Part shown: piece after piece, positions 10,211 through 56,677 of the stretch
How positions within the stretch are numbered: position 1 is the first letter of the stretch
Layout: each line of letters starts with the position of its first letter
DNA from: Nitrospirota bacterium
GTDB lineage: Bacteria > Nitrospirota > UBA9217
Direction of reading: 5' to 3'
Assembly: GCA_963741205.1 (NCBI GenBank)
Contig: CAVUHW010000026.1
Coordinates: 192,001-256,000 of the forward strand
DNA length: 64,000 nucleotides
The notes under the pieces: generated by a model
What the model was told of the DNA's origin: nothing
The model's database searches: none
Seen by the model: only the letters and a program-made list of their open reading frames with translations
Translations under genes and position numbers: made by a program

Positions 10211-10227
10211 TTTGATTGCGGATTTCA

Positions 10228-10281
10228 CCCTGCACTCGCGCATAGCACTCGTAGGCGCTGGGCGCAGGCGGATTGCGGATT
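10228..10281. repeat. 54-bp dispersed hairpin element
   Basis: 50/54 identical to 38212..38265; partial inverted copies at about 108..124 and 40926..40940. Confidence 0.8.
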
Positions 10282-10329
10282 ACGAATTTTCCCCTTTATT
10301 GATAAGCTAAAGCTCGCGGCTACAAACCT

Positions 10330-31512: not shown

Positions 31513-33070
31513 TTACTTCGCGTACTCCACGTACCTGCTCTCGCGGACCACCGTCACCTTGATCTGGCCGGGATAGGACAGCTCCGCCTCGATCTTCTTG
31601 GCGATATCGCGTGAAAGCTGGGCCGAGTGGGCGTCCGACAGGTCCTCGGGCTTCACGATGATCCTGATCTCGCGGCCGGCCTGGATGGCGTAGGACTTCT
31701 CAACGCCCTTGAAGGAATTGGCGGCGCTCTCGAGCTGCTCAAGCCGCTTGAGGTAGCTCTCGAGCGTTTCGCGCCTCACGCCCGGCCTTCCGGCCGAAAG
31801 CGCGTCCGCGGCCGCGACGAGCACGGACTCGACGCAGTTCGGTTCGCCGTCGCCGTGGTGGGTCATGATGGCGTTGATCACCTTGGCCGACTCGCCGTAC
31901 TTCTTGGCCAGGTCGCCGCCGATCTGGGGATGGGTCCCTTCCACCTCGTGGTCGATGGACTTGCCCAGGTCATGGAGCAGGCCCGCGCGCCGCGCGAGCT
32001 TCTGGTCCACGCCGCATTCGGCCGCCATGATCCCCGCGAAGTAGGCCACCTCGCGCGCATGCATGAGCACGTTCTGTCCGTAGCTCGTCCGGTACTTGAG
32101 CCTGCCGATGAGCTTGATGATCTCGGGATGCAGATTGTGGATGCCGAGGTCGAAGGCCGCCTTCTCGCCCTCTTCCTTCATGGAGACATCGAGGTCTTTC
32201 TTCACCTTTTCGGCGATCTCCTCGATCCGGGCGGGATGGATGCGTCCGTCGTGCATCAGCCGTTCGATCGTGAGCCTCGCGATCTCCCGCCGGAGCGGGT
32301 CATAGCACGACAGGATGACCGCCTCGGGCGTATCGTCGATGATCAGGTCGATGCCCGTGGCCGCTTCGATGGCCCGGATGTTCCTGCCCTCGCGCCCGAT
32401 GATCCTGCCCTTCATCTCATCGTTGGGGAGATTGACGACCGATACCGTGGCCTCGGCCACATAGTCGCTCGCGTAACGCTGGATGGCCAGGCTGATGATG
32501 TTCTTGGACTTCTTGTCGGCCTCGTCCTTCGCCTCGTCCTCGATCCGCTTGATGGTCTTGGCCGCCTCGAACTTCGCCTCGTCCTCCATGGCGACCATGA
32601 GCTGGCGCTTGGCCTCTTCCGCCGTCATGTTCGCGATCTTCTCGAGCAGTCTCGCGCTGCTCGCGCAGGCCCCTGTCAAAGCGTTCTTCCTTTTCGACCG
32701 CGACCTTTTCGCGCGCGGAGAGCTCGCGTTCGCGGCGGATCGCATCGGACTCCCGCTTTTCAACCAGGTCGATCTTCTTTTCGAGGTTTTCTTCTTTCTG
32801 GGTGAGCCGCCGTTCCTGGTTCTGGATCTCCTGCCGTTTCTCGCGGTTTTCCTTCTCGAACTCCGCGCGGGCCTGGTAGAGCTTGTCCTTGGCCTCGAGG
32901 ACGGCCTCTTTGCGTTTGGTCTCGGCCTCGCGCTCGGCGTTCGCAATGATCCTCGCCGCCTCGCCTTCGGCGTCCCGGATCTTGCCCGCTGCGGCCTTTC
33001 CTTTGACCAGCAGGCCCAGGCCGAATCCTCCGGCCAGTCCCGCCACCACTAGTACAATATACTCGATCAT
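31513..33070 (-). CDS. rny: ribonuclease Y (frameshift near 32650)
   Basis: N-terminal TM, coiled coil, KH domain ([13 protein letters not shown]) and HD domain (LLHDLGK). Confidence 0.96.
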
Positions 33071-38188: not shown

Positions 38189-38296
38189 CGTGAAATCAAT
38201 TTCGGATTGCGCCCTGCACTCGCGCAAAGCACTCGTAAGCGCTGGGTGCAGGCGGAATGCGGATTGCGGAGTTTTAATCCGAAATCCGCAATCGAA

Positions 38297-40846: not shown

Positions 40847-41051
40847 CGCATTATTAACCACAGGCGGCTTCGCCGCACACGGTCAACCCAAATTCAATAT
40901 TTGGTTTTTATCCAACCTGCGTATATCCGCCTGCACCCAGAGGTTATAAGTGCTACGTCGCGAATGCAGTGTGTGTGTTCTGCGAAGCAGAACCCGTGGT
41001 TTCAATATCAGTCATTGCGGCCGAAGGCCGCGCTATGATATACTCTCCCGC

Positions 41052-42264: not shown

Positions 42265-43940
42265 TCACGTCATATCATGCGGTACGAGCACTTTTGTCGT
42301 TCCCGTTGACTGGTTTCCCGCTTCATCAGTTGTGACGGCAGTAATGGTGTACAATCTGCCGTCCATATCCGTGCTTTCACGCCAGGCCTCGAGCGGAACC
42401 ACGCTTCCGAAACCACCCGTAACAGTCTTATTGTATTTTCCGTATTCGTCGGTTACCGTAATTATTGTTGAAGCGATTCCCGATCCGCCATCGGCAACCG
42501 AGCCTCCAATCAAAACGTTCACAATTTTATGATTAGGCGGCCAGAGGATCGCCGAGCTAACGGAAGAGAAGGGTTCGACGGAGATGTTTTATCGATATTG
42601 ACGATCATCTCATGAGTCGGCGTCTCCACGTTCCCTGCATTGTCGATTGCATAAAAGGTCACTGTATGGGTCCCATCGCTCACGATTGAAAGCGAGGCCC
42701 CACTTCCCTGCACGACGGTCTCTGTGCCGTCAACGGAGTAATGTATCTCCTTCACGCCCGCGCCGCCGTCATTGTCTGTTGCGGTCAATGTCATCTGCAC
42801 ATCAGACACATACCACCCGTTATTGCCCTGTGTCCCGGTCATCATGGATGTTGTAATTGGCGGAGTGACATCCAGAGTTGCCGCGCCTGCAGGATCGCAT
42901 ATAGGCATAATGTTCGTCCAGTCGGGTGGGAAGACAGCCGGCGACTGGCCATCGCCATTATTTCCGTCAGCCACGACGGTCCCATCGTCTTTAAGCCCAA
43001 CCGTATGATTCCAGCCTGCTGCAATGGCCTTTATATTCGTCCAGGCGGGTGGGAAGACAGTCGGCGGCGACTGGCCATTGTAATAAGACCCGACAGCCAC
43101 GACGGTCCCGTCCTCTTTAAGCCCGACCGTATGATACGGCCTGCAGCAATGGCCTTTATATTCGTCCATGAGGGAGACATCCGGCGACTGGCCTAGCCAT
43201 TATCTCCGACAGCCACGACGGTCCCGTCCTCTTTAAGCCCGACCGTATGATACGCGCCTGCAGCAATAGCCTTTATATTCGTCCATGTGGGAAGACATCC
43301 AGCTGGCCATAGCCATTATCTCCGACAGCCACGACGGTCCCATCCTCTTTAAGCCCGACCGTATGATACGCGCCTGCTGCAATGGCCTTTATATTCGTCC
43401 ATGAGGAGGAAGACATCCGGCGCTGGCCATGCGATTATCTCCGACAGCCACGACGGTCCCATCCTCTTTAAGCCCGACCGTATGATACGTGCCTGCTGCA
43501 ATGGCCTTTATATTCGTCCATGGGGGGAAGACATCCGGCTGGCCATAGCTATTATATCCGACAGCCACGACGGTCCCGTCCTCTTTAAGCCCGACCGTAT
43601 GATACGTGCCTGCTGCAATGGCCTTTATATTCGTCCATGTGGAGACATTCAGCTGGCCATAGCTATTATACCCGACAGCCACGACGGTCCCATCCTCTTT
43701 AAGCCCGACCGTATGATAGCGGCCTGCTGCAATGGTAGCTACATCAGAGCATTGAACGGCCTGGGACAGGGACAGGGAAAGGGAAACGGACTTAGAGAAC
43801 GTTGCTTGGGCAGCTGGCTGGAGTACAGGCGTCTCCCCAACACCACAAGCAAAAAGCAGGGATGCCACCGACATAACCAGAACTAACCGCATAGCATGCT
43901 TGATCATATGAAGCTTCCTCCTTGCCAACGAGAGTTTCAT
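42265..43940 (-). CDS. RCC1-repeat lipoprotein with Ig-like and LWPPNHK..VPHD C-terminal domains (frameshifted)
   Basis: Lipobox LFAC; seven repeats of IAAG.YHTVGLKEDGTVVAVG.N..GQ; Ig-like segment (GNNGWY..DG.HTV.FYAIDNAGNVE); AAGGAGG RBS. Confidence 0.8.
42912..43735. repeat. seven near-identical 114-126-bp coding tandem repeats
   Basis: Anchor ACGACGGTCCC at about 42973, 43099, 43215, 43331, 43450, 43567 and 43681. Confidence 0.92.
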
Positions 43941-49114: not shown

Positions 49115-50611
49115 CTATCGCTTTTTCTCGTAGTCCCTCAAAAACTGCGTCAGGAGCCTTACCCCGATGCCGGTCGCGCCCTTCGGGGTGTAGGGCCGGT
49201 CCTTGTCGCTCCAGGCCGTCGCGGCGATGTCGAGGTGCACCCAGGGATATTTCTGCACGAACTTGGACAGAAGCGCCGCGGCCGTAATCACGCCTCCCTG
49301 CCTGCCGCCGGTGTTCTTCATGTCCGCGATGTCGCTCTTGATCTGGTCGTAGTACTCCTCCCAGAGCGGAAGCTCCCACACGCGCTCTCCGGTCTTTTCG
49401 CCGGCCTCGCGTATCTTCCGTTTGAACGCATCATGGGTGCCGACCATGCCGGTCGCTTCCTGACCGAGCGCGATGCCGCATGCGCCGGTCAAGGTCGCGA
49501 TGTCCACGATCACCGCCGGCTTGTATCGGCAGGCATAGGCGAGCCCGTCGGAGAGGATGAGCCGCCCCTCCGCGTCGGTGTTGAGGATCTCGATGGTCTG
49601 TCCGGACATCGTGCGCAGGACGTCGCCGGGCTTGTACGCGCTGCCGCCCGGCATGTTCTCCGTGGCGGGAAGCAGCCCTACAATGTTGAGCGGGAGCCCC
49701 AGCGCGGCGGCCGCACGGATTGCGCCCAGGACCGCGGCCCCGCCGGACATGTCGTCCTTCATCCTGTCCATGTTCTCCGCGGGTTTGATCGAGATGCCGC
49801 CGGAATCGAAGGTAATGGTCTTGCCCACAAGGGCGATGAAGGGCTTCTTGCCGCCCTTCCGGTATTCGACGATGATGAACTTCGGCGGCTGCATGCTGCC
49901 CGACGCAACGCCCAGGAGCCCGCCCATGCCGAGCCTTTCCATCTGTGCCCGCTCGAGGACCCGGACTTTGAGGCCGGACAGCCGGGAGAGTTCCCTCGCC
50001 TTCGCGGCAATGACCGCCGGCGTCATGTCAACGGGCGGAGAGCTTACCATGTCGCGGGCCATCATGACGGACTCGGCGATCACTGCGCCCGCCTTCGCGC
50101 CCTTCTCCAGGGCCTTGACCGCGGCCGCCGTTTCGCTCACCAGGGTCATCGTCCGGATGTCCTGCCTGCGTTCGTTCTCCTCGTCGGTCTTATACTTGAG
50201 AAAACGGTACAGGCCGAGCTTGGCCCCCTCGGCAACCGCCTGGCCGGTTTCCTCCGCATCCAGACTGAAGCCGTCGATGAGGAGCGTGATGTTCGCTGCT
50301 CCGGCGGCCCTGAGAGCAGGCGCCGCCTTGCCCACGGCGTGTCGCAGCCTGTTGAGCGTAAATTCACCGCGCTTGCCCAGCCCGGCAAGGAGCAGCCGCT
50401 CCGGGGCGATTGTTCCCCCCGGATGCACCGGGTAAACCGCCCCGGGCTTGGCCTTAAAATCGCCGCGCTTCATAATTCGCCCGATCATACCGCCGAGCGC
50501 CTTGTCCACCCGGGCCGCGGCCCCCCCCGGTTTTTCTCCGTCAAAGAGAAACAGCACCGCGCCGTCGGTCTTCAGCTTTTCTATCCAGCCCGTCGCAACG
50601 TTGATTTTCAT
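49115..50611 (-). CDS. pepA: leucyl aminopeptidase (M17)
   Basis: GKTITFDSGG, NTDAEGRL, ATLTGA and HLDIA. Confidence 0.95.
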   Translation of the reverse strand: MKINVATGWIEKLKTDGAVLFLFDGEKPGGAAARVDKALGGMIGRIMKRGDFKAKPGAVYPVHPGGTIAPERLLLAGLGKRGEFTLNRLRHAVGKAAPALRAAGAANITLLIDGFSLDAEETGQAVAEGAKLGLYRFLKYKTDEENERRQDIRTMTLVSETAAAVKALEKGAKAGAVIAESVMMARDMVSSPPVDMTPAVIAAKARELSRLSGLKVRVLERAQMERLGMGGLLGVASGSMQPPKFIIVEYRKGGKKPFIALVGKTITFDSGGISIKPAENMDRMKDDMSGGAAVLGAIRAAAALGLPLNIVGLLPATENMPGGSAYKPGDVLRTMSGQTIEILNTDAEGRLILSDGLAYACRYKPAVIVDIATLTGACGIALGQEATGMVGTHDAFKRKIREAGEKTGERVWELPLWEEYYDQIKSDIADMKNTGGRQGGVITAAALLSKFVQKYPWVHLDIAATAWSDKDRPYTPKGATGIGVRLLTQFLRDYEKKR

Positions 50612-50663
50612 GGTTCCTCACCCGGATGACCGGATTTCCGATCCGTATTTTTCCCTGAACCGG

Positions 50664-51416
50664 TCAATCTTTCCGTATGACAACCGGTTCCAGGCCTTCG
50701 AGCGTCAGCTTGGCAGCGACCTGCTCCGCCCGTTCCGCCGATGCGTAGGAGCCGATGCGCACATGGTATAAACGCGCGCGCGAGGTTTCTGTCTCAACAA
50801 TAAAGACCAGTTCGAATTTCTTCGAGAGCCGGTCCTTGAGCATGCGCGCGTTCTCCTCTTCCGTATAGGTCGCGGCCTGGACCGTGTAGCGTGCAGCGCC
50901 GCGCACCGCTGCCAGGGTTTCCAGCTTGACCCGGGCCGTACCGCTTGAAAGGAACCCCAGCTCCCTCGCTGCTTCGTACGACACGTCGAGGATCCTGTTT
51001 TTGACGAAGGGGCCCCGGTCGGTGATTGTTACGTCGATGCTCTTGGAATTGCGGAGGTTCGTGACGCGAATGACCGTGCCGAACGGCAGCGTCCGGTGGG
51101 CAGCCGAGAGGCCCTCCCTATGGAAGACGCCGCCGGACGCCGTCTTTTTGCCGTGAAGCTCCTTCCCGTACCAGCTGGCGACACCCGTTTCCTTGTAGAC
51201 CGGGCCCCGAACAGGGGCTGCCTTAGGAACGGCGGCCGCCGGTTGCGGTGGAGTGACCGCGGGCGCAGGTTCCTCCACCGTGCCTGAGGGAATACTGTGG
51301 AGAGACTGTTGCGGTAAGTCAGGCGCCAATACGGGCGCAGGTTCCTTCACTCTGCCCGCGCATGCCGACAGCGCCGCCAGCGCAAGAAATGCGCCGATTC
51401 TGAACAGCACCTTCAT
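50664..51416 (-). CDS. rlpA: RlpA septal lytic transglycosylase lipoprotein with SPOR domain
   Basis: Lipobox LSAC, GVASWYG, AAHRTLP, DRGPF and a C-terminal SPOR domain. Confidence 0.92.
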   Translation of the reverse strand: MKVLFRIGAFLALAALSACAGRVKEPAPVLAPDLPQQSLHSIPSGTVEEPAPAVTPPQPAAAVPKAAPVRGPVYKETGVASWYGKELHGKKTASGGVFHREGLSAAHRTLPFGTVIRVTNLRNSKSIDVTITDRGPFVKNRILDVSYEAARELGFLSSGTARVKLETLAAVRGAARYTVQAATYTEEENARMLKDRLSKKFELVFIVETETSRARLYHVRIGSYASAERAEQVAAKLTLEGLEPVVIRKD

Positions 51417-51455
51417 CCTATAGGAATAACAGCGTGACACCGCATTGCCTTCCGG

Positions 51456-51683
51456 TTATGCCGGCGCCTTTTCCCCGCCGGCTTTGGCCTCGGCCGCTTT
51501 CTTTGCAGCCAGTTTGTAATTCTTGACTGCGCGCAGTTTCCGCTGTGCGCGCTTCACCTGCTTGAGGGCCTTGCGGGCCTCGGGTTCGGACTTCTTGCCG
51601 CCGGCCTTCGATGCCTTCTCCGTCGCGGTCTTTTTCAGCTTTTCAATCTTTTGCTTGAGCTCTTCCTGGTTTATCTTGACCAC
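51456..51683 (-). CDS. small Lys/Ala-rich basic protein (75 aa)
   Basis: GTG start after an AAGGAGG RBS; MVKINQEELKQKIEKLKK..KRAQRKLR. Confidence 0.7.
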   Translation of the reverse strand: MVKINQEELKQKIEKLKKTATEKASKAGGKKSEPEARKALKQVKRAQRKLRAVKNYKLAAKKAAEAKAGGEKAPA

Positions 51684-51861
51684 TGTAACAATCCTCCTTG
51701 AACGTAAATGACGCGTGTATTTGAACGAGAAACAATAATAGACAAAACCACCTTCGAAATCAAGAAATTTCGTGTTTTCCTGTGAAGGAACCGCGAAGGC
51801 GCCGCCCTTTGGAGGCAATGAACCGCAGTGTGTACCGGGATCGGGGTGTCGTCGAGAGGAC

Positions 51862-51894
51862 AAAAAAAGGGAGTCTCCTTTCGGGGACTCCCTT
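51862..51894 (-). terminator. rho-independent terminator
   Basis: GGGAGTCCCC-GAAA-GGAGACTCCC followed by T7, just after the 51911 stop. Confidence 0.85.
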
Positions 51895-51910
51895 GAGAGC
51901 GTTCCTGAGA

Positions 51911-52201
51911 TTAGCAACCCACGGATGCCTTGGGCTTTGCCTTCATCTCTTTGATCTCTTTCACGGTGTCTTTATCCACCATGATCTCCGCCTTCGTATC
52001 GGCCTTGACCTTGCTGAGATCTACGCCTTTGTCGGCCTTGAGCGTCATGTCGGTGGTGGTGCCTTCCGCACAAAAGGAAATCGTGCCTGCCTTGACGTCT
52101 ACAGCCTTGATGGTGCCCTTCTTTGCTTCAGCGGCAAAAACCATGGAAACGAGAGAAACAACCATAATTACGACTGCGAGAACTGCTGCGACCTTCTTCA
52201 T
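51911..52201 (-). CDS. small secreted OB-fold-like protein ending in KASVGC
   Basis: AAGGAGGAG RBS, signal peptide (VFA|A), G.IKAVD...GTI beta pattern, terminal Cys and its own terminator. Confidence 0.8.
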   Translation of the reverse strand: MKKVAAVLAVVIMVVSLVSMVFAAEAKKGTIKAVDVKAGTISFCAEGTTTDMTLKADKGVDLSKVKADTKAEIMVDKDTVKEIKEMKAKPKASVGC

Positions 52202-52425
52202 TTTTTGCTCCTCCTTGCTTGGATTTGGACTGATAATGACTGTGGGGACATACAATACCACAAGTTTAAGAAATACTCAATTAAAATTTTAAATGATGCG
52301 ATTTGAAAATTTTACGGCTTGGAGGGCCAAGAATAACGTGGGTCTGCTTGCACTTATCGAGAGTAAGGGGAATCACGAATCACGCCTGTACTTCGCAGTA
52401 GTTTTCTATGTAGGAAATTGCGAGA

Positions 52426-52496
52426 TTCACCTACTAGTGTGTAATGGCGTTGACTAAATATCAATGCAGTATACGGCTTGTAAAGTGTACATGAAC
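52426..52496 (-). repeat. 71-bp conserved non-coding element, copy A (begins at the attC R' core)
   Basis: 53/71 ungapped identity to 53683..53753 by manual alignment. Confidence 0.8.
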
Positions 52497-52554
52497 GCCT
52501 GAGCTCAGGGGCGCCGCGATAGCGGCGTCCCTTGGGCGGAGCGCGTAGTTAGCG
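52490..52554 (-). mobile_element. attC-like recombination site (#3)
   Basis: Minus strand: CGCTAAC..GCTC..AAGGGACGCCGC-TATC-GCGGCGCCCCTGAGC..GTTCATG, an imperfect palindrome with AAC/GTT cores. Confidence 0.65.
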
Positions 52555-52723
52555 CGCACAGTTTGTAGACAGCATATTCACGTCGCATCCGTAGCCATCT
52601 TGGCGCGCCGGTTTTAACCGGTTAAATATCTTCCGGGTGTGACTGCCAAACCCGTATACGGTAGTACGATTATTCGCTCTTGTCAACCGATATTTCGACC
52701 AGTTCGTGCAGTGACGGCTGGCA

Positions 52724-53500
52724 TCAAACCGCGGGTGAAGAAGGCGTGGTCCCGTTTCCGGACGGGCGTTTCGACCGGAGATACCGCACGCCGGTCCAAA
52801 GCAGCATCAAGGCAAATGCGACACGCAACGCGGCATCGGAGAGCGTGTGGGCGAGCGATCCGCCCAGGAAGGTTCCGAGGAGGATGCCGGGGACGAGTCC
52901 CTTCAGAAGATCCGTCCGCATATTTCCAAGCTTCCAGTGAGTATAGGCGCCGGCGCTGGCCGGGGGAACCATGGCCAGCATGGAAGTGCCCTGTGCCACG
53001 TGTTGATCGAAACCGGCAATGAGCACCATGGCGGGGATCATGATCGCGCCGCCGCCGACACCCATCATTCCCGCAAGAAATCCCATAAACGCCCCGGTGA
53101 ACAGAAGTACGATGCCCTGCATCATGCCCGAGGCCAGCGCATGCAGGATGGTGAGGTAGGGTTTGAACAGCAGGAGGCCTGATACGACCAGCAGGTAGCC
53201 GCCGAAGGAGCGCTTCAGCTTCCACTCCGGAAGGGAATGTGCAAAGCGCGCACCTGCGCGCGCGGTCATGACACCCGGCGTTGCCATGAGGAGTGCCGCG
53301 GTTACATCCACGGTCCCCTTCATGGCATAGGTAATGGCGCCGGCAATCCCGGTGAAGACGAGGGCGAGCAGACTGATGCCGTGTGCCTTATGCTGGTCAA
53401 CCCTGAGGACGCTGACCAGGAGGGGGATCATAACGACCCCGCCGCCACCGCCAATGAGGCCGCCGAAGACGCCGGCAAGAAAACCGATAAAAAAGCTCAT
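52724..53500 (-). CDS. sulfite exporter TauE/SafE family membrane protein
   Basis: Internal duplication of GL.G.GGG..MIP and AHGISL/AQGTSM motifs; multiple TM helices. Confidence 0.9.
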   Translation of the reverse strand: MSFFIGFLAGVFGGLIGGGGGVVMIPLLVSVLRVDQHKAHGISLLALVFTGIAGAITYAMKGTVDVTAALLMATPGVMTARAGARFAHSLPEWKLKRSFGGYLLVVSGLLLFKPYLTILHALASGMMQGIVLLFTGAFMGFLAGMMGVGGGAIMIPAMVLIAGFDQHVAQGTSMLAMVPPASAGAYTHWKLGNMRTDLLKGLVPGILLGTFLGGSLAHTLSDAALRVAFALMLLWTGVRYLRSKRPSGNGTTPSSPAV

Positions 53501-53682
53501 AGAGGATTTTTCGTCAGCCTTTCGTCTTCGAGATGATCTCGCCGAACCGTTTTGCCGAGCTTACGCTGCCTGAATCATCGGCGGGTGAGTGCCCATCGCG
53601 AGGTCTAAGAACACGGAACAACCTCGTGGCAAATATTACAATCAATCCTCAGTATTGTATCGACTGCCCGGATTCCGTCACC

Positions 53683-53753
53683 TTCACCTACGAGCTTGCA
53701 CGCGTGTTGACTAAAATTCAATGCGACATGCTACTTGAAAAGTGTATATGAAC
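53683..53753 (-). repeat. 71-bp conserved non-coding element, copy B (begins at the attC R' core)
   Basis: 53/71 ungapped identity to 52426..52496. Confidence 0.8.
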
Positions 53754-53804
53754 GCTGCGCTCAGCCGCGCGTTCCGGCGCGTCGGTTGCAGTGCATTGTT
53801 GGGC
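53747..53804 (-). mobile_element. integron attC site (#2), 58 bp
   Basis: Minus strand: GCCCAAC-aatgc-aCT[G]CAACCG[A]CGCG-loop-CGCGCGGCTGAG-cgcagc-GTTCATA, with R''/R' cores, unpaired central spacer and two extrahelical bases; 12 bp after a stop codon. Confidence 0.82.
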
Positions 53805-53816
53805 GGCCAGCTCGCA

Positions 53817-54615
53817 TCAGTCCGGAAGGCGTTTCGCGAGCGGCTCCATCCCGCTGCTCCTGATCACGTCGGATGCGCGCTCGGAGGCGAAGAACGCGAT
53901 CAGTCGCTTCGCCGCTTCAATCTCATTCGATCTCGCCACGACCGCCGCTGAGAACACCTGGTTCAGCTGGATCTCCTCCGCGATCACACCTGCAAAGTCG
54001 ACGCCTGGTGCGTGCACGATTTCGCTGACTGGCATGATCGCAACGTCCGCTTGTCCCGCGGCGACCATGGCCGCCGCGCCTGTGCCGCGCGGCGCGGCCT
54101 TGACGTTTACCCGGTCCGCGATGCCAAGCCGCGGAAAAACGTCCTTCGTAAGGAAGATGCCGCTCGTGCTGCTCGGGACGGCGACAGCCTTGGAGTTCAA
54201 TACGACGCTGTTTGAAGGCTTCGACGGTGCTGACGTCAGGTTTTGCAGCCCCAGCGGACACCGCCACGCCGAGGGGTGTTCGCGCCAGATCTACATCCGT
54301 TCCGGCGGCGATCCGTTGCGCGGCGATCAACTCAGTGAGACCTTCCCTGGAGAGGATCACCACGTCAACAGGAATGCCGCTGGCGAGTTGCGCCCCGATG
54401 GTCTGCGGCCCCGTTCCCTGCGACGAACCTGAGCCGGTGGTGACCTTGATGCCCGTCGTGCGCTCGAACTCCGGCAACAGCTTCTCGTACGGTCCGGAGA
54501 AGCCGCCCGATATCAGCACCTTCAACTGCGCCGATGCGGCGAGCGGCCACATCAACAGTGTCGTGACGACGATCGCATTAACCGCGCTCCACCTGCGTGA
54601 TGATAAAGCATTCAT
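53817..54615 (-). CDS. ModA-like periplasmic substrate-binding-domain protein carried on a gene cassette (frameshift near 54205)
   Basis: Signal peptide (ASA|Q), SGGF, FER.TG, DVVILS, STSG and P.SEI; GAGGAG RBS directly after the GTTGGGC core. Confidence 0.8.
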
Positions 54616-54626
54616 GGCTCCTCGCC

Positions 54627-54682
54627 GCCCAACGCGCGCGTGTACCGCCTCGTAGCGCTCGGACACGACGCGCTCGTTGGAA
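54627..54682 (-). mobile_element. attC-like site (#1), 56 bp, degenerate
   Basis: Minus strand: TTCCAAC-GAGCGCGTCGTGTCCG..CGGTACACGCGCGC-GTTGGGC. Confidence 0.6.
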
Positions 54683-54752
54683 CTCTTATCGTGATATGAG
54701 GATTATTTGCACAATATCGACTCGATCTATAATAATAACGCGGTTTGTGAGC

Positions 54753-55331
54753 TCACCTAAGCGACAAGCATGTATGCTCCGCTAAGTCATTCATTGTTCT
54801 CTCCTGTGGTATGCCATTCTTGCCCATGGAGATTTTTGTTCCTACTGAATTAATCACGCAGTCAACTTTCCAGAATCCGTCTTCGAGGCGAACAACAAAA
54901 CCAAGGAATTCTGTCATTTCGCGCAGATCCTTATCTATCCAGTCTCTTCTGTAGAAAAGCCTTCCAGCAGTACCACGACCCTCAGCCCGGACAAACGTGA
55001 AATTCTGAATACCAACATGATATTTAGAAACGCTTTTCAAGGCGGCCGATATTATTAGGGTAAGCGATACAAACATTGTGGTTGTGCTTTCAATTTCAAG
55101 AATATGTAACCGTTTGAGCTACAGGAAAGAACCTCTTACCAAAACATTCGAGATCAATATGCATATTTCATGTCGTAATGTTGACTTCTTCATCGAATCA
55201 TCGGCAACACCTACAGGATGTAGTCGATGATTGTTCACGCTTTTTGAAATTGCAGAATTGCGAGTGAAGGTTGGCATTTCCAAGATCAGTTTGACATGGG
55301 GAATGAAGGAGGACCGTTGGATGTCCCCCAA
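54753..55331 (-). pseudogene. low-GC ORF remnants, possibly a decayed cassette gene
   Basis: ORFs 54753..55076 and 55119..55331 in AT-rich DNA upstream of attC #1; no recognisable domain. Confidence 0.3.
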
Positions 55332-55345
55332 AGACGCGTGAAAAT

Positions 55346-56677
55346 CTATTCTTCCTTCAGGATGCGCCAGAGGCTCGTCCGCGAGATGCCGAGCACCTCC
55401 GCGGCCTTTGATTTATTGCCGCCGAGCATGTCGATCACCTTCTCGGCGTAATCCTTGTTCAGCTCCTCGATGGTCTTGACCTTGTCCGGCTCGATGGTCT
55501 CGATCTGAAACATCTTGATGGTCTGCGGAAGGCTTTCGGGAGTTATGACGCCGGTCTTTTCCAGGATGATCGCCCGTTCGACGATATTTTCAAGCTCCCG
55601 CACGTTGCCCGGATAGCTGTAGTTCGTCAGCACGTCCAGCGACTCCTTCGTGAAGCCGGTGATCTTCTTGCGGGAGCTCGGGAGGTGCTTTTCCAGGAAA
55701 TAAGCGCAGAGCGGCGGGATGTCGTCCCGGCGGTCGCGGAGCGGCGGGATGACGATCTCCATGATGTTCAGGCGGTAGTACAGGTCCTCCCGGAACCTGC
55801 CCTCGGCGATGATCGTCCGCACGTTCTGGTTCGTCGCGGCGATGAACCGCACGTCCACCTTGATCGGCTTGGTCCCGCCCACCCGGTAGAATTCGCCCTC
55901 CTCGATGACTTTCAGGAGCTTGGCCTGGAGGTTCGGCGCCATCTCCGCGATCTCGTCCAGAAACAGCGTGCCCGTGTCCGCGATCTCCACGAGGCCCTGC
56001 TTGGTTTTGACCGCGCCGGTGAACGCGCCCTTTTCGTGCCCGAAAAGCTCGGAGGCCAGGAGTTCCTCGGTGAGCGTGGCGCAGTTGATCGAAAGAAAGG
56101 GCATGCTCTGGCGCCGGCTCGTGAAGTGGATGATCTTGGCGAGCAGGCTCTTGCCCACGCCGGTCTCCCCGGTCAGGAGCACGTTGCAGTCCGAGTCCTT
56201 CATCCCGTCGATGGTGTCGAGTATCCGGCTCATGCTCACGCTCTTGGCGATGATCGAGACCTTGCGGTCCATGCCCATGAAGGCCTTGAGCGCGATGTTC
56301 TCCTTTTTCAGCGTCCGCTGTTCCCGGATCTTCGCGACCTTGAGCAGGAGTTCGTCGAGGTTGAAGGGTTTGGTGACGTAATCGTACGCCCCCTTCTTCA
56401 TCGCCTCCACCACGGAGCCGATGCTGCCGAAACCGGTGATGATGATCACCTCGGTCTCGATCTGCTTCTCCTTGATCTTGTCGAGAAGCTCGATGCCGGT
56501 CATGCCCGGCATCTTGATATCGGCGATCAAAAGGTCGAAGTGGTCGCTCTCGATCTTCCGGAGCGCGTCCTGTCCGTTTTGCGTCCCGACTGCCGCGTAG
56601 CCGGCCTTCTGCAGGGTATTGACCAGGTGCTTCAGGGTGATCTCTTCGTCTTCGGCTATGAGGATTTTGAAGGCCAT
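55346..56677 (-). CDS. sigma54-dependent response regulator (NtrC family)
   Basis: Receiver, GETGVGKS, GAFTGA, FLDEI, GNVREL and Fis-type HTH. Confidence 0.95.
   Translation of the reverse strand: MAFKILIAEDEEITLKHLVNTLQKAGYAAVGTQNGQDALRKIESDHFDLLIADIKMPGMTGIELLDKIKEKQIETEVIIITGFGSIGSVVEAMKKGAYDYVTKPFNLDELLLKVAKIREQRTLKKENIALKAFMGMDRKVSIIAKSVSMSRILDTIDGMKDSDCNVLLTGETGVGKSLLAKIIHFTSRRQSMPFLSINCATLTEELLASELFGHEKGAFTGAVKTKQGLVEIADTGTLFLDEIAEMAPNLQAKLLKVIEEGEFYRVGGTKPIKVDVRFIAATNQNVRTIIAEGRFREDLYYRLNIMEIVIPPLRDRRDDIPPLCAYFLEKHLPSSRKKITGFTKESLDVLTNYSYPGNVRELENIVERAIILEKTGVITPESLPQTIKMFQIETIEPDKVKTIEELNKDYAEKVIDMLGGNKSKAAEVLGISRTSLWRILKEE

Follow-up and report, generated by a model that had tools for sequence, protein, structure and literature searches.

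A cluster of attC sites lacking an integrase is called a CALIN. Among the open questions about integrons are how cassettes that lie far from the integron promoter Pc, or that have no integrase, are expressed and reshuffled, and where new cassettes come from. In the superintegrons of the Vibrionaceae, promoter-carrying cassettes without a gene or open reading frame (ORF) have been proposed or shown to drive cassettes far from Pc (accessible text of PMC11014356), and gene-less or ORF-less promoter cassettes are also described from oral metagenomes (excerpts of PMC6557892). Other elements target attC sites themselves; these include the IS1111-attC insertion sequences (ISs), IS110/IS1111 elements being known to target both repeats and attC sites (accessible part of PMC11187229), and group IIC-attC introns with outward promoters (excerpts of PMC3001079). 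Here we describe element E, a conserved non-coding sequence of about 70–75 bp fused to the 3′ side of attC sites. Two copies of it, A and B, lie in a small cassette array in a 64,000-nt stretch of DNA from a Nitrospirota bacterium (contig CAVUHW010000026.1 of assembly GCA_963741205.1, positions 192,001–256,000; the whole stretch is called the window). Comparison of its copies leads us to propose, tentatively, that E is a promoter or acceptor pad for gene cassettes.

Copies A and B were the basis of an original prediction, made from the window alone, which held that they align without gaps from the GTT of an attC crossover to GTAGGTGAA. A base-by-base recount agrees (53 of 71 positions identical), no alignment is found between the differing bodies of the two attC sites, and the start of each copy is in register with the GTT of a site that a covariance model (below) scores as an attC. 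A segmental duplication is excluded, as the prediction argued, and E proves to be a dispersed and dedicated family of non-coding sequences associated with attC sites. The similarity far exceeds what chance would give. A profile built on A and B picks up seven more in this genome (E-values 1.7e-11 to 2.6e-4), which makes nine, and iterated searches of related genomes raise the number of unique copies to 65, or to 128 with metagenome contigs (duplicates removed). In a BLAST set of 60 relatives, E (E-value below ~1e-4) is present in nine of the 14 other genomes of the genus, 10 of 15 with this one (the weakest match, in genome G013, has 1.1e-4), and outside the genus in two other genera; a wider draw of the family gave E in 11 of 61 genomes and three of 19 genera. 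The two most complete genomes, G001 (99% complete) and G002 (100% complete), contain 13 and 11 matches, respectively. BLAST matches from other genomes start and stop at the borders of E. A pattern of 19 specified bases, searched in one genome each of 185,579 species, gave 25 matches, all in eight Nitrospirota metagenome-assembled genomes (MAGs), and in metagenomes it gave 72 stretches, 61 of which contain E by profile search; the copies come from Nitrospirota MAGs and soil metagenomes.

E encodes nothing and is conserved in blocks (TTTCA at positions 13–17, GCATTGA at 29–35, TTT-GTCAACA at 38–48, and TGCA at 53–56), with a variable stretch of four bases at 49–52; the most conserved block is the near-invariant GTAGGTG at 62–68. 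In a conservation profile of 54 copies, T32, A35, and A56 are kept in 51 copies each, G34 in 50, and C55 and T60 in 52 each, and the TTGA-N7-TCAA dyad and the TTGAWW-N17-CAnnCT arrangement that the prediction had pointed out in two copies are conserved across the family. The initial TTCA is present only in copies that reach the attC, and 5′ variants (6 nt shorter or 17 nt longer) occur with several types of downstream leader. No conserved RNA or single-stranded DNA fold was found (the alifold consensus of 65 copies is empty on both strands), nor any Rfam match at an E-value of ≤1 in window 50000–56000, from which we conclude that E acts as double-stranded DNA or as linear sequence. A profile search of the same genome found no inverted E near the copies; the idea that E frames the cassette and pairs with its far end to lengthen the attC hairpin was rejected, there being no opposite-strand E match nearby. 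It was also considered whether the 3′ half of E could be the 5′ arm of a long attC, and this was rejected as well, the best-partner mean over all copies being 6.67 versus 6.43 for shuffled arms; copy B and one other copy score high in this downstream pairing test in spite of the family-wide null result.

The sites that precede E are integron-type attC sites. In all 19 aligned E-adjacent sites an imperfect palindrome is bounded by an inverse core with AAC at its end and a core that begins with GTT; the length criterion for an attC palindrome was about 55–140 nt, and the three sites in the window are 52–61 nt long. The stem covaries, with compensatory changes in six of seven pairs predicted by RNAalifold from the 19 sites. 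A hand-drawn 18-pair structure applied to a MAFFT alignment of 13 other sites did no better than shuffled sequences (60.3% versus 59.3% paired), probably since such an alignment takes no account of structure. By eye, several of the sites have a longer 5′ arm. The 19 sites, each cut at GTT, were used to build an attC covariance model, R1. The prediction had recommended looking for an integron integrase gene elsewhere in the genome, and one is present on contig C18 (intI; TIGR02249 367.5 bits, cut-off 265) with a short cassette array adjoining it. R1 also matches an attC of this intI-adjacent array, as well as nine sites of this genome (G000) that were not in its training set. Six of these nine are not followed by anything E-like, and the other three by only the first bases of E (C5:23009), a 5′ fragment (C41:13472), or a diverged copy (C9:125). 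Over the genome as a whole a full E lies behind six of 16 R1 sites, a 5′ fragment behind one, and a diverged copy behind one; the remaining sites have GTTRRRY-like cores followed within ~15–30 nt by a ribosome-binding site and a start codon. No R1 match was found between E and the next gene. A different shared head (GAGTCT.TAGG...) is present behind two attC sites in different genomes (G000:C50:27704 onward and L073:1703 onward), which hints at a second conserved family behind attC sites.

The left border of E is the attC crossover, G|TT. In 28 of the 65 copies from genomes an R1 attC ends in fixed register at the first base of E (18 training sites and 10 new ones), and the same register is found in 16 of 74 metagenome copies, where 16 of the 32 R1 matches precede E; both counts, which answer the prediction's call to tally adjacency to attC, are lower bounds, since several more upstream sites that R1 missed look attC-like by eye. 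Among the 37 genome copies with no R1 match, 23 miss the first three or more bases of E, and copies without an attC share no conserved left half. In five loci an identical stretch of ~100 nt ending in ...GCCCTTTAAATGG abuts a 5′-truncated E at position 28/29 (L081:2554–2653, L083:2542–2641, L216, L166, and L226), and a related 17-nt insert (GCCCTTTATATGATTAT) follows position 8 of E in other copies; another mobile element may have left the stretch ending in GCCCTTTAAATGG as its end or footprint.

The right border emerges from a linkage comparison, in which the 128 copies were compared with 400 nt of upstream and 500 nt of downstream sequence at ≥90% identity, with inspection of the alignments. 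In six groups of loci from different genomes or contigs, identity is 92–100% through the upstream cassette, its attC, and all of E as far as GTAG(G/A)TG, and from a few bases past this block the sequences are unrelated. Since the upstream cassette, attC, and E stay constant and the downstream DNA changes, E travels with the preceding attC, and attC plus E behaves like an attI acceptor, with up to four partners. The group L103/L198/L206/L190 has four different continuations, and in it E is identical as far as position 65–68, including rare variants near its 3′ end; the group L061/L071/L157 has three, and there the sequences differ from about position 50 on, the pattern expected of homologous recombination within E; the four-allele group does not show this. 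No pair among the 128 copies shares E and a long downstream stretch behind different attC sites. On the other hand, some pairs are alike in E alone with both flanks unrelated; L200 and L205, for example, are identical at 74 of 74 bases (positions 1–74). The 3′ junction is fuzzy by ~5 nt and no GTT is present at it. E is a discrete module with two junctions, and recent exchange of the downstream units has taken place at its 3′ end and not at G|TT. The similarity of E correlates only weakly with that of its flanks in 25 copies (0.24 for E positions 1–50 with itself, and 0.21 for positions 52–75 with the downstream sequence). A junction at TCCTG between leader I and the DUF1801 unit (L061 versus L069) is most simply a deletion between 5-nt direct repeats, and was rejected as a new site.

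Many copies of E precede further repeated non-coding modules, such as leader I (41 unique copies, ~190 nt), at the end of which a hairpin is good in only six of 40 copies (mean z −0.58). No consensus fold was obtained for any of the downstream leader families, leader I included; given this result, the empty consensus of E itself, and the lack of an Rfam match, a structured RNA was rejected as an explanation. The genes past the leaders are varied (TauE, DUF1801, RibD_C, PIN, MazE, ParA-like, cation efflux, DUF4337, and CAAX protease). Among ORFs of at least 60 codons on the same strand as E, the first usually starts 100–500 nt behind it; at the C8 copy, which is not in a cassette, a gene stands directly at the end of E. 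Complete units with an attC in front, then E, leader, gene, and attC in order, and another E behind, are seen in L067 (2655–1499, with a RibD_C gene) and in the TauE unit of the window. E is itself an insertion target. In genome G011 an IS110-family element of ~1.8 kb (435-aa DEDD transposase, Pfam PF01548 and PF02371; three copies 99% identical) lies inside three E copies at the same point, just before AGGTG (L079:12700–14545, L080:2530–4300, and L083:700–2505), and other foreign sequences abut E after GTAG or AGT (L163/L181, L183, and L227). Genome G001 carries 11 near-identical copies of a gene pair (291 and 366 aa; e.g., L228:6198–8170, L229:4363–6335, and L230:1470–3442), whose first gene is a tyrosine recombinase scoring ~109 bits against the integron-integrase model, below the cut-off; four copies of the pair lie 7–14 kb from an E copy, and no direct link between the two was found.

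On the reading proposed above, E would be an outward-facing expression pad with a sigma-70-type promoter, having its −35 box at 32–37 (TTGAAT), a 17-nt spacer in which the TTGA-N7-TCAA dyad could be an operator, and its −10 box at 55–60 (CAAGCT). The predicted start, about 7 nt after T60 and so near position 67, would coincide with the exchange border. Any promoter-less unit that lands behind attC plus E would then be transcribed, which should be useful in arrays far from the integron Pc or in genomes without an integrase, and would explain the continued usefulness of orphan arrays; a further, probable role of the conserved 75 bp is that of a homology tract or target that aids swaps of the downstream units. 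The TTGA of the −35 box, the TG (53–54) that precedes the −10 box, and A56 and T60 within it are among the best-conserved columns. The context is also consistent with a promoter, in that translation signals start right behind the attC sites without E, as is usual for promoter-less cassettes, and behind E the genes usually start 100–500 nt further on. The three intI-adjacent, Pc-proximal cassettes carry no E, and G001 and G002, with no intI over the family cut-off, have the most E copies (13 and 11).

A number of observations do not fit a promoter well. The proposed −10 box matches the consensus at only two of six positions and was not reported by a consensus scan; the spacer is conserved as strongly as the boxes; and GTAGGTG, the best-conserved block, lies at or after the predicted start, where a promoter does not explain it any more than it explains, on its own, why exchanges cluster around the 3′ end of E to within a few bases. 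The genes behind E are mostly co-oriented with it, but in ~12 of 53 copies the first gene is on the opposite strand. The gene towards which copy A is directed, for a small secreted protein (51911–52261), has a canonical promoter of its own at 52262–52330 (minus strand), consisting of TTGAGT, 17 nt, and the extended −10 sequence TGgTATTGT. Hardly a base of this promoter differs among 14 genomes of the genus, 13 of them sister genomes without E at the locus; the suggestion that copy A drives this gene was therefore rejected. Finally, X20, the sole RNA run, consists of contigs, which cannot show transcript starts. It covers only 53751–54519 of the array, plus conserved stretches of the flanking genes, and one of its contigs stops matching at 53751, the G|TT behind the attC that precedes copy B; a diverged E would stop the alignment there too. 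Sigma-54, extracytoplasmic function (ECF)-type, and reverse-strand sigma-70 readings of the blocks were compared by eye with consensus sequences, and none fits.

The main rival reading, possible if doubtful, is that E is itself a recombination site, either an attI-like acceptor behind the attC or a new cassette-exchange site, with its crossover at GTAGGTG; the integron integrase or another recombinase would act on it, and the mobile circles would consist of leader, gene, attC, and E. The constant left and variable right sides of the six groups, with up to four partners, are what such a site should produce, and it would account for the sharpness of both borders (with pairs such as L200/L205 identical in E alone), for GTAGGTG being the most conserved part, and for the G011 IS110-family insertions and other foreign sequences at the same few bases; E is also about the size of known attI sites. 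Integron integrases, however, require a GTT/AAC triplet at the junction, and the 3′ junction of E has none and is fuzzy by ~5 nt. Nor is there any likeness to the attI regions beside intI in G000 and G031, no candidate recombinase was identified, G001 and G002 have many copies but no integron integrase over the cut-off, and the differences that begin near position 50 in L061/L071/L157 look like homologous recombination inside E. The prediction's first alternative, a dispersed landing pad of attI type, holds in part: the attC and element are constant with differing DNA behind them, but the junction follows GTAGGTG and not G|TT, the intI-proximal regions are dissimilar, and the copies without an attC have no left half in common. 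If E is an exchange site, it adds a new type of recombination site to the integron system.

A promoter and an exchange site do not exclude one another, as an integron platform is a promoter plus an acceptor site. In a combined and rather unlikely version, the cassette arrays of this lineage would alternate between two junctions, the attC G|TT and an undescribed exchange site at GTAGGTG, and E would be a portable, integrase-independent platform of promoter and acceptor. Were this true, units could be captured and expressed anywhere in the genome, and such a platform could even be a step by which ordinary genes are turned into cassettes.

In a more classical scheme, which is likewise unlikely, E would simply be the conserved 5′ end of the next cassette and would be moved at G|TT by the integrase, and the linkage of E to the upstream attC would have arisen through homologous recombination or gene conversion between E copies after the integrase was lost. 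The exact left border is as this would have it, and so are the complete E-headed units (L067 and the TauE unit), the occurrence of the shorter and longer 5′ variants with several leader types, and the pairs identical in E alone, whose similarity starts somewhere between −3 and +3 and shows that G|TT has served as a junction. The linkage data argue the other way, given that none of the pairs among the 128 copies shares E and a long downstream stretch behind different attC sites, and that crossovers spread along E would lose the rare 3′ variants which the four-allele group keeps as far as position 65–68; in addition, the R″ boxes that close E-headed units (e.g., CGCTAAC of the TauE unit) are not complementary to the TTCATA at the start of E beyond AAC/GTT. 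The related proposal in the prediction, that E heads a family of gene-less promoter cassettes, is not supported as worded, because no attC closes the 3′ side of E in either the pairing test or the covariance-model search, and other non-coding modules follow, with ordinary genes after them; a promoter role as such is plausible.

It is very unlikely that E is a selfish or decaying repeat, such as a relic like a miniature inverted-repeat transposable element (MITE) or an IS110/IS1111-type target and footprint: the copies are dispersed, AT-rich, numerous, and sharply bordered, their ends show a weak inverted likeness (TTCAnnTnCA, 7/10), 23 of the 37 without a model-detected attC miss their first three or more bases, and an IS110-family element of a kind known to target repeats and attC sites (accessible part of PMC11187229) is found inside E, but there are no target-site duplications at the borders, no convincing terminal repeats, and no transposase associated with intact copies, the orientation is always that of the attC with exact register at G|TT, and conservation in blocks over three genera is as expected under selection.

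The array in the window runs on the minus strand from 55345 to 52313 (3.03 kb), is flanked on one side by the stop of a sigma-54 activator gene and on the other by the promoter of the gene for the small secreted protein, and has three same-strand attC sites within 2.2 kb around single genes. Far as it is from the intI on contig C18, it fits the description of a CALIN. Its first gene is a 107-aa ORF with no Pfam family (54753–55076, minus strand, as are all features of the array). The attC that follows (54631–54682; R1, 31.7 bits) has no element behind it; its canonical GTTGGGC core is followed 15 nt on by the ATG of the next gene, which encodes an SBP_bac_11 solute-binding protein (53817–54666) and is split into two frames in this assembly, with Pfam matches to both pieces. 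One base at 54207 is absent from the contigs of all four runs compared (X1, X2, X3, and X20), so this frameshift may be an assembly error or strain-specific. The solute-binding-protein cassette ends with attC#3 (53751–53804, R″ GCCCAAC ... GTT; R1, 39 bits, E-value 2e-10), directly behind which lies copy B (53683–53752, TT...GTAGGTGAA; by alignment, and nhmmer E-value 4e-20), whose GTT is at 53753–53751. Copy B is separated from a TauE/SafE-family gene (52724–53500; Pfam PF01925, E-value 2.3e-47) by a 182-nt non-coding leader (53501–53682), which beyond E is unlike the leaders of other copies and has within it a promoter-like GTGACG-16-TACAAT at 53681→53654. The TauE cassette ends with attC#2 (52494–52554, R″ CGCTAAC ... 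GTT; R1, 34.2 bits, E-value 1.1e-8), and directly behind it is the last unit of the array, copy A (52426–52495; alignment and profile search), with its GTT at 52496–52494. A contig of run X3 spans copy A (52363–52531) without substitutions, its one difference being a 3-base deletion at 52435. A non-coding tail of 113 nt (52313–52425) completes the array and ends where homology to the sister genomes begins in the 14-genome alignment (joints 52312 and 52315).

None of the 13 sister-genome loci examined has the array, or E, at this place. In addition, the array is skipped in two contigs from a related population (DNA run X2), where 52312/52315 is followed by 55346 after 35–37 other letters; these contigs should be treated with caution, since each joint has just 26 nt on its shorter side. 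Taken with the sister genomes, they mark all 3.03 kb of the array as an insertion or deletion polymorphism. The empty sites that the prediction hoped to find in relatives thus exist, but what they lack is the entire array and not E alone. Elsewhere in the window, a lone weak match to the attC model lies far from the array (32483–32557, minus strand; 16.5 bits, E-value 0.022). A second repeat family, unrelated to E, is GC-rich with a palindromic core like that of repetitive extragenic palindromic (REP) sequences, and occurs in direct and inverted copies at 10215–10290, 38199–38274, 40925–40955, and 100–124, its two long copies being 87% identical. At 42931–43780 there are six to seven tandem copies of a 114–126-nt unit (73–90% identity) that is probably a repeated protein domain.

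Among the described systems closest to E is the attI/Pc platform of integrons, which shares with it a constant non-coding segment of ~70 bp, varied units behind it, a promoter-like arrangement directed into those units, and an association with attC-type recombination. Unlike that platform, E does not lie beside an integrase gene, and a genome may hold many copies of it, each one joined to the 3′ side of an attC. It is found on contigs other than that of intI and not between intI and the first cassette, and where an attI would have its G|TT crossover in a GTTRRRY core at the right end, the E junction follows GTAGGTG without a GTT. An origin of E from an attI was rejected, as the intI-proximal regions of G000 and G031 gave no E-like match at E-values ≤100 other than one at the chance level of 0.83. 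Gene-less promoter cassettes share with E the presence of non-coding DNA within cassette arrays; each of them ends in an attC of its own, and their sequences vary from cassette to cassette, whereas E is a single family with no attC of its own, fused to units that carry genes. Like E, the attC-targeting ISs and introns keep to one position and one orientation, in or next to attC sites, and some of them have outward promoters; but they are 1–2 kb long and encode a transposase or reverse transcriptase, and E is ~70 bp, has no Rfam intron match, and is itself an IS110 target. REP sequences and bacterial interspersed mosaic elements (BIMEs) are, as E is, short, multi-copy, lineage-restricted, non-coding, and targets of IS110/IS1111-type elements; REPs, however, are palindromic, whereas E, whose fixed partner is the attC, shows no conserved fold on either strand. 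The window array, with its three same-strand attC sites far from intI, is like a CALIN, a concept that to our knowledge includes no conserved module behind attC. No description of such a module was found in a literature search at the level of abstracts and a few passages, in line with the prediction, which knew of no named element with this layout. With the E family, one module joined on the crossover side to over 40 model-verified attC sites, it becomes possible to test how expression and reshuffling of cassettes work far from Pc or in arrays that lack an integrase, and what gives rise to new cassettes. Measured against what defines attI/Pc platforms, gene-less cassettes, and attC-targeting ISs and introns, E falls short in each case, and it is a new variant within the integron/CALIN world.

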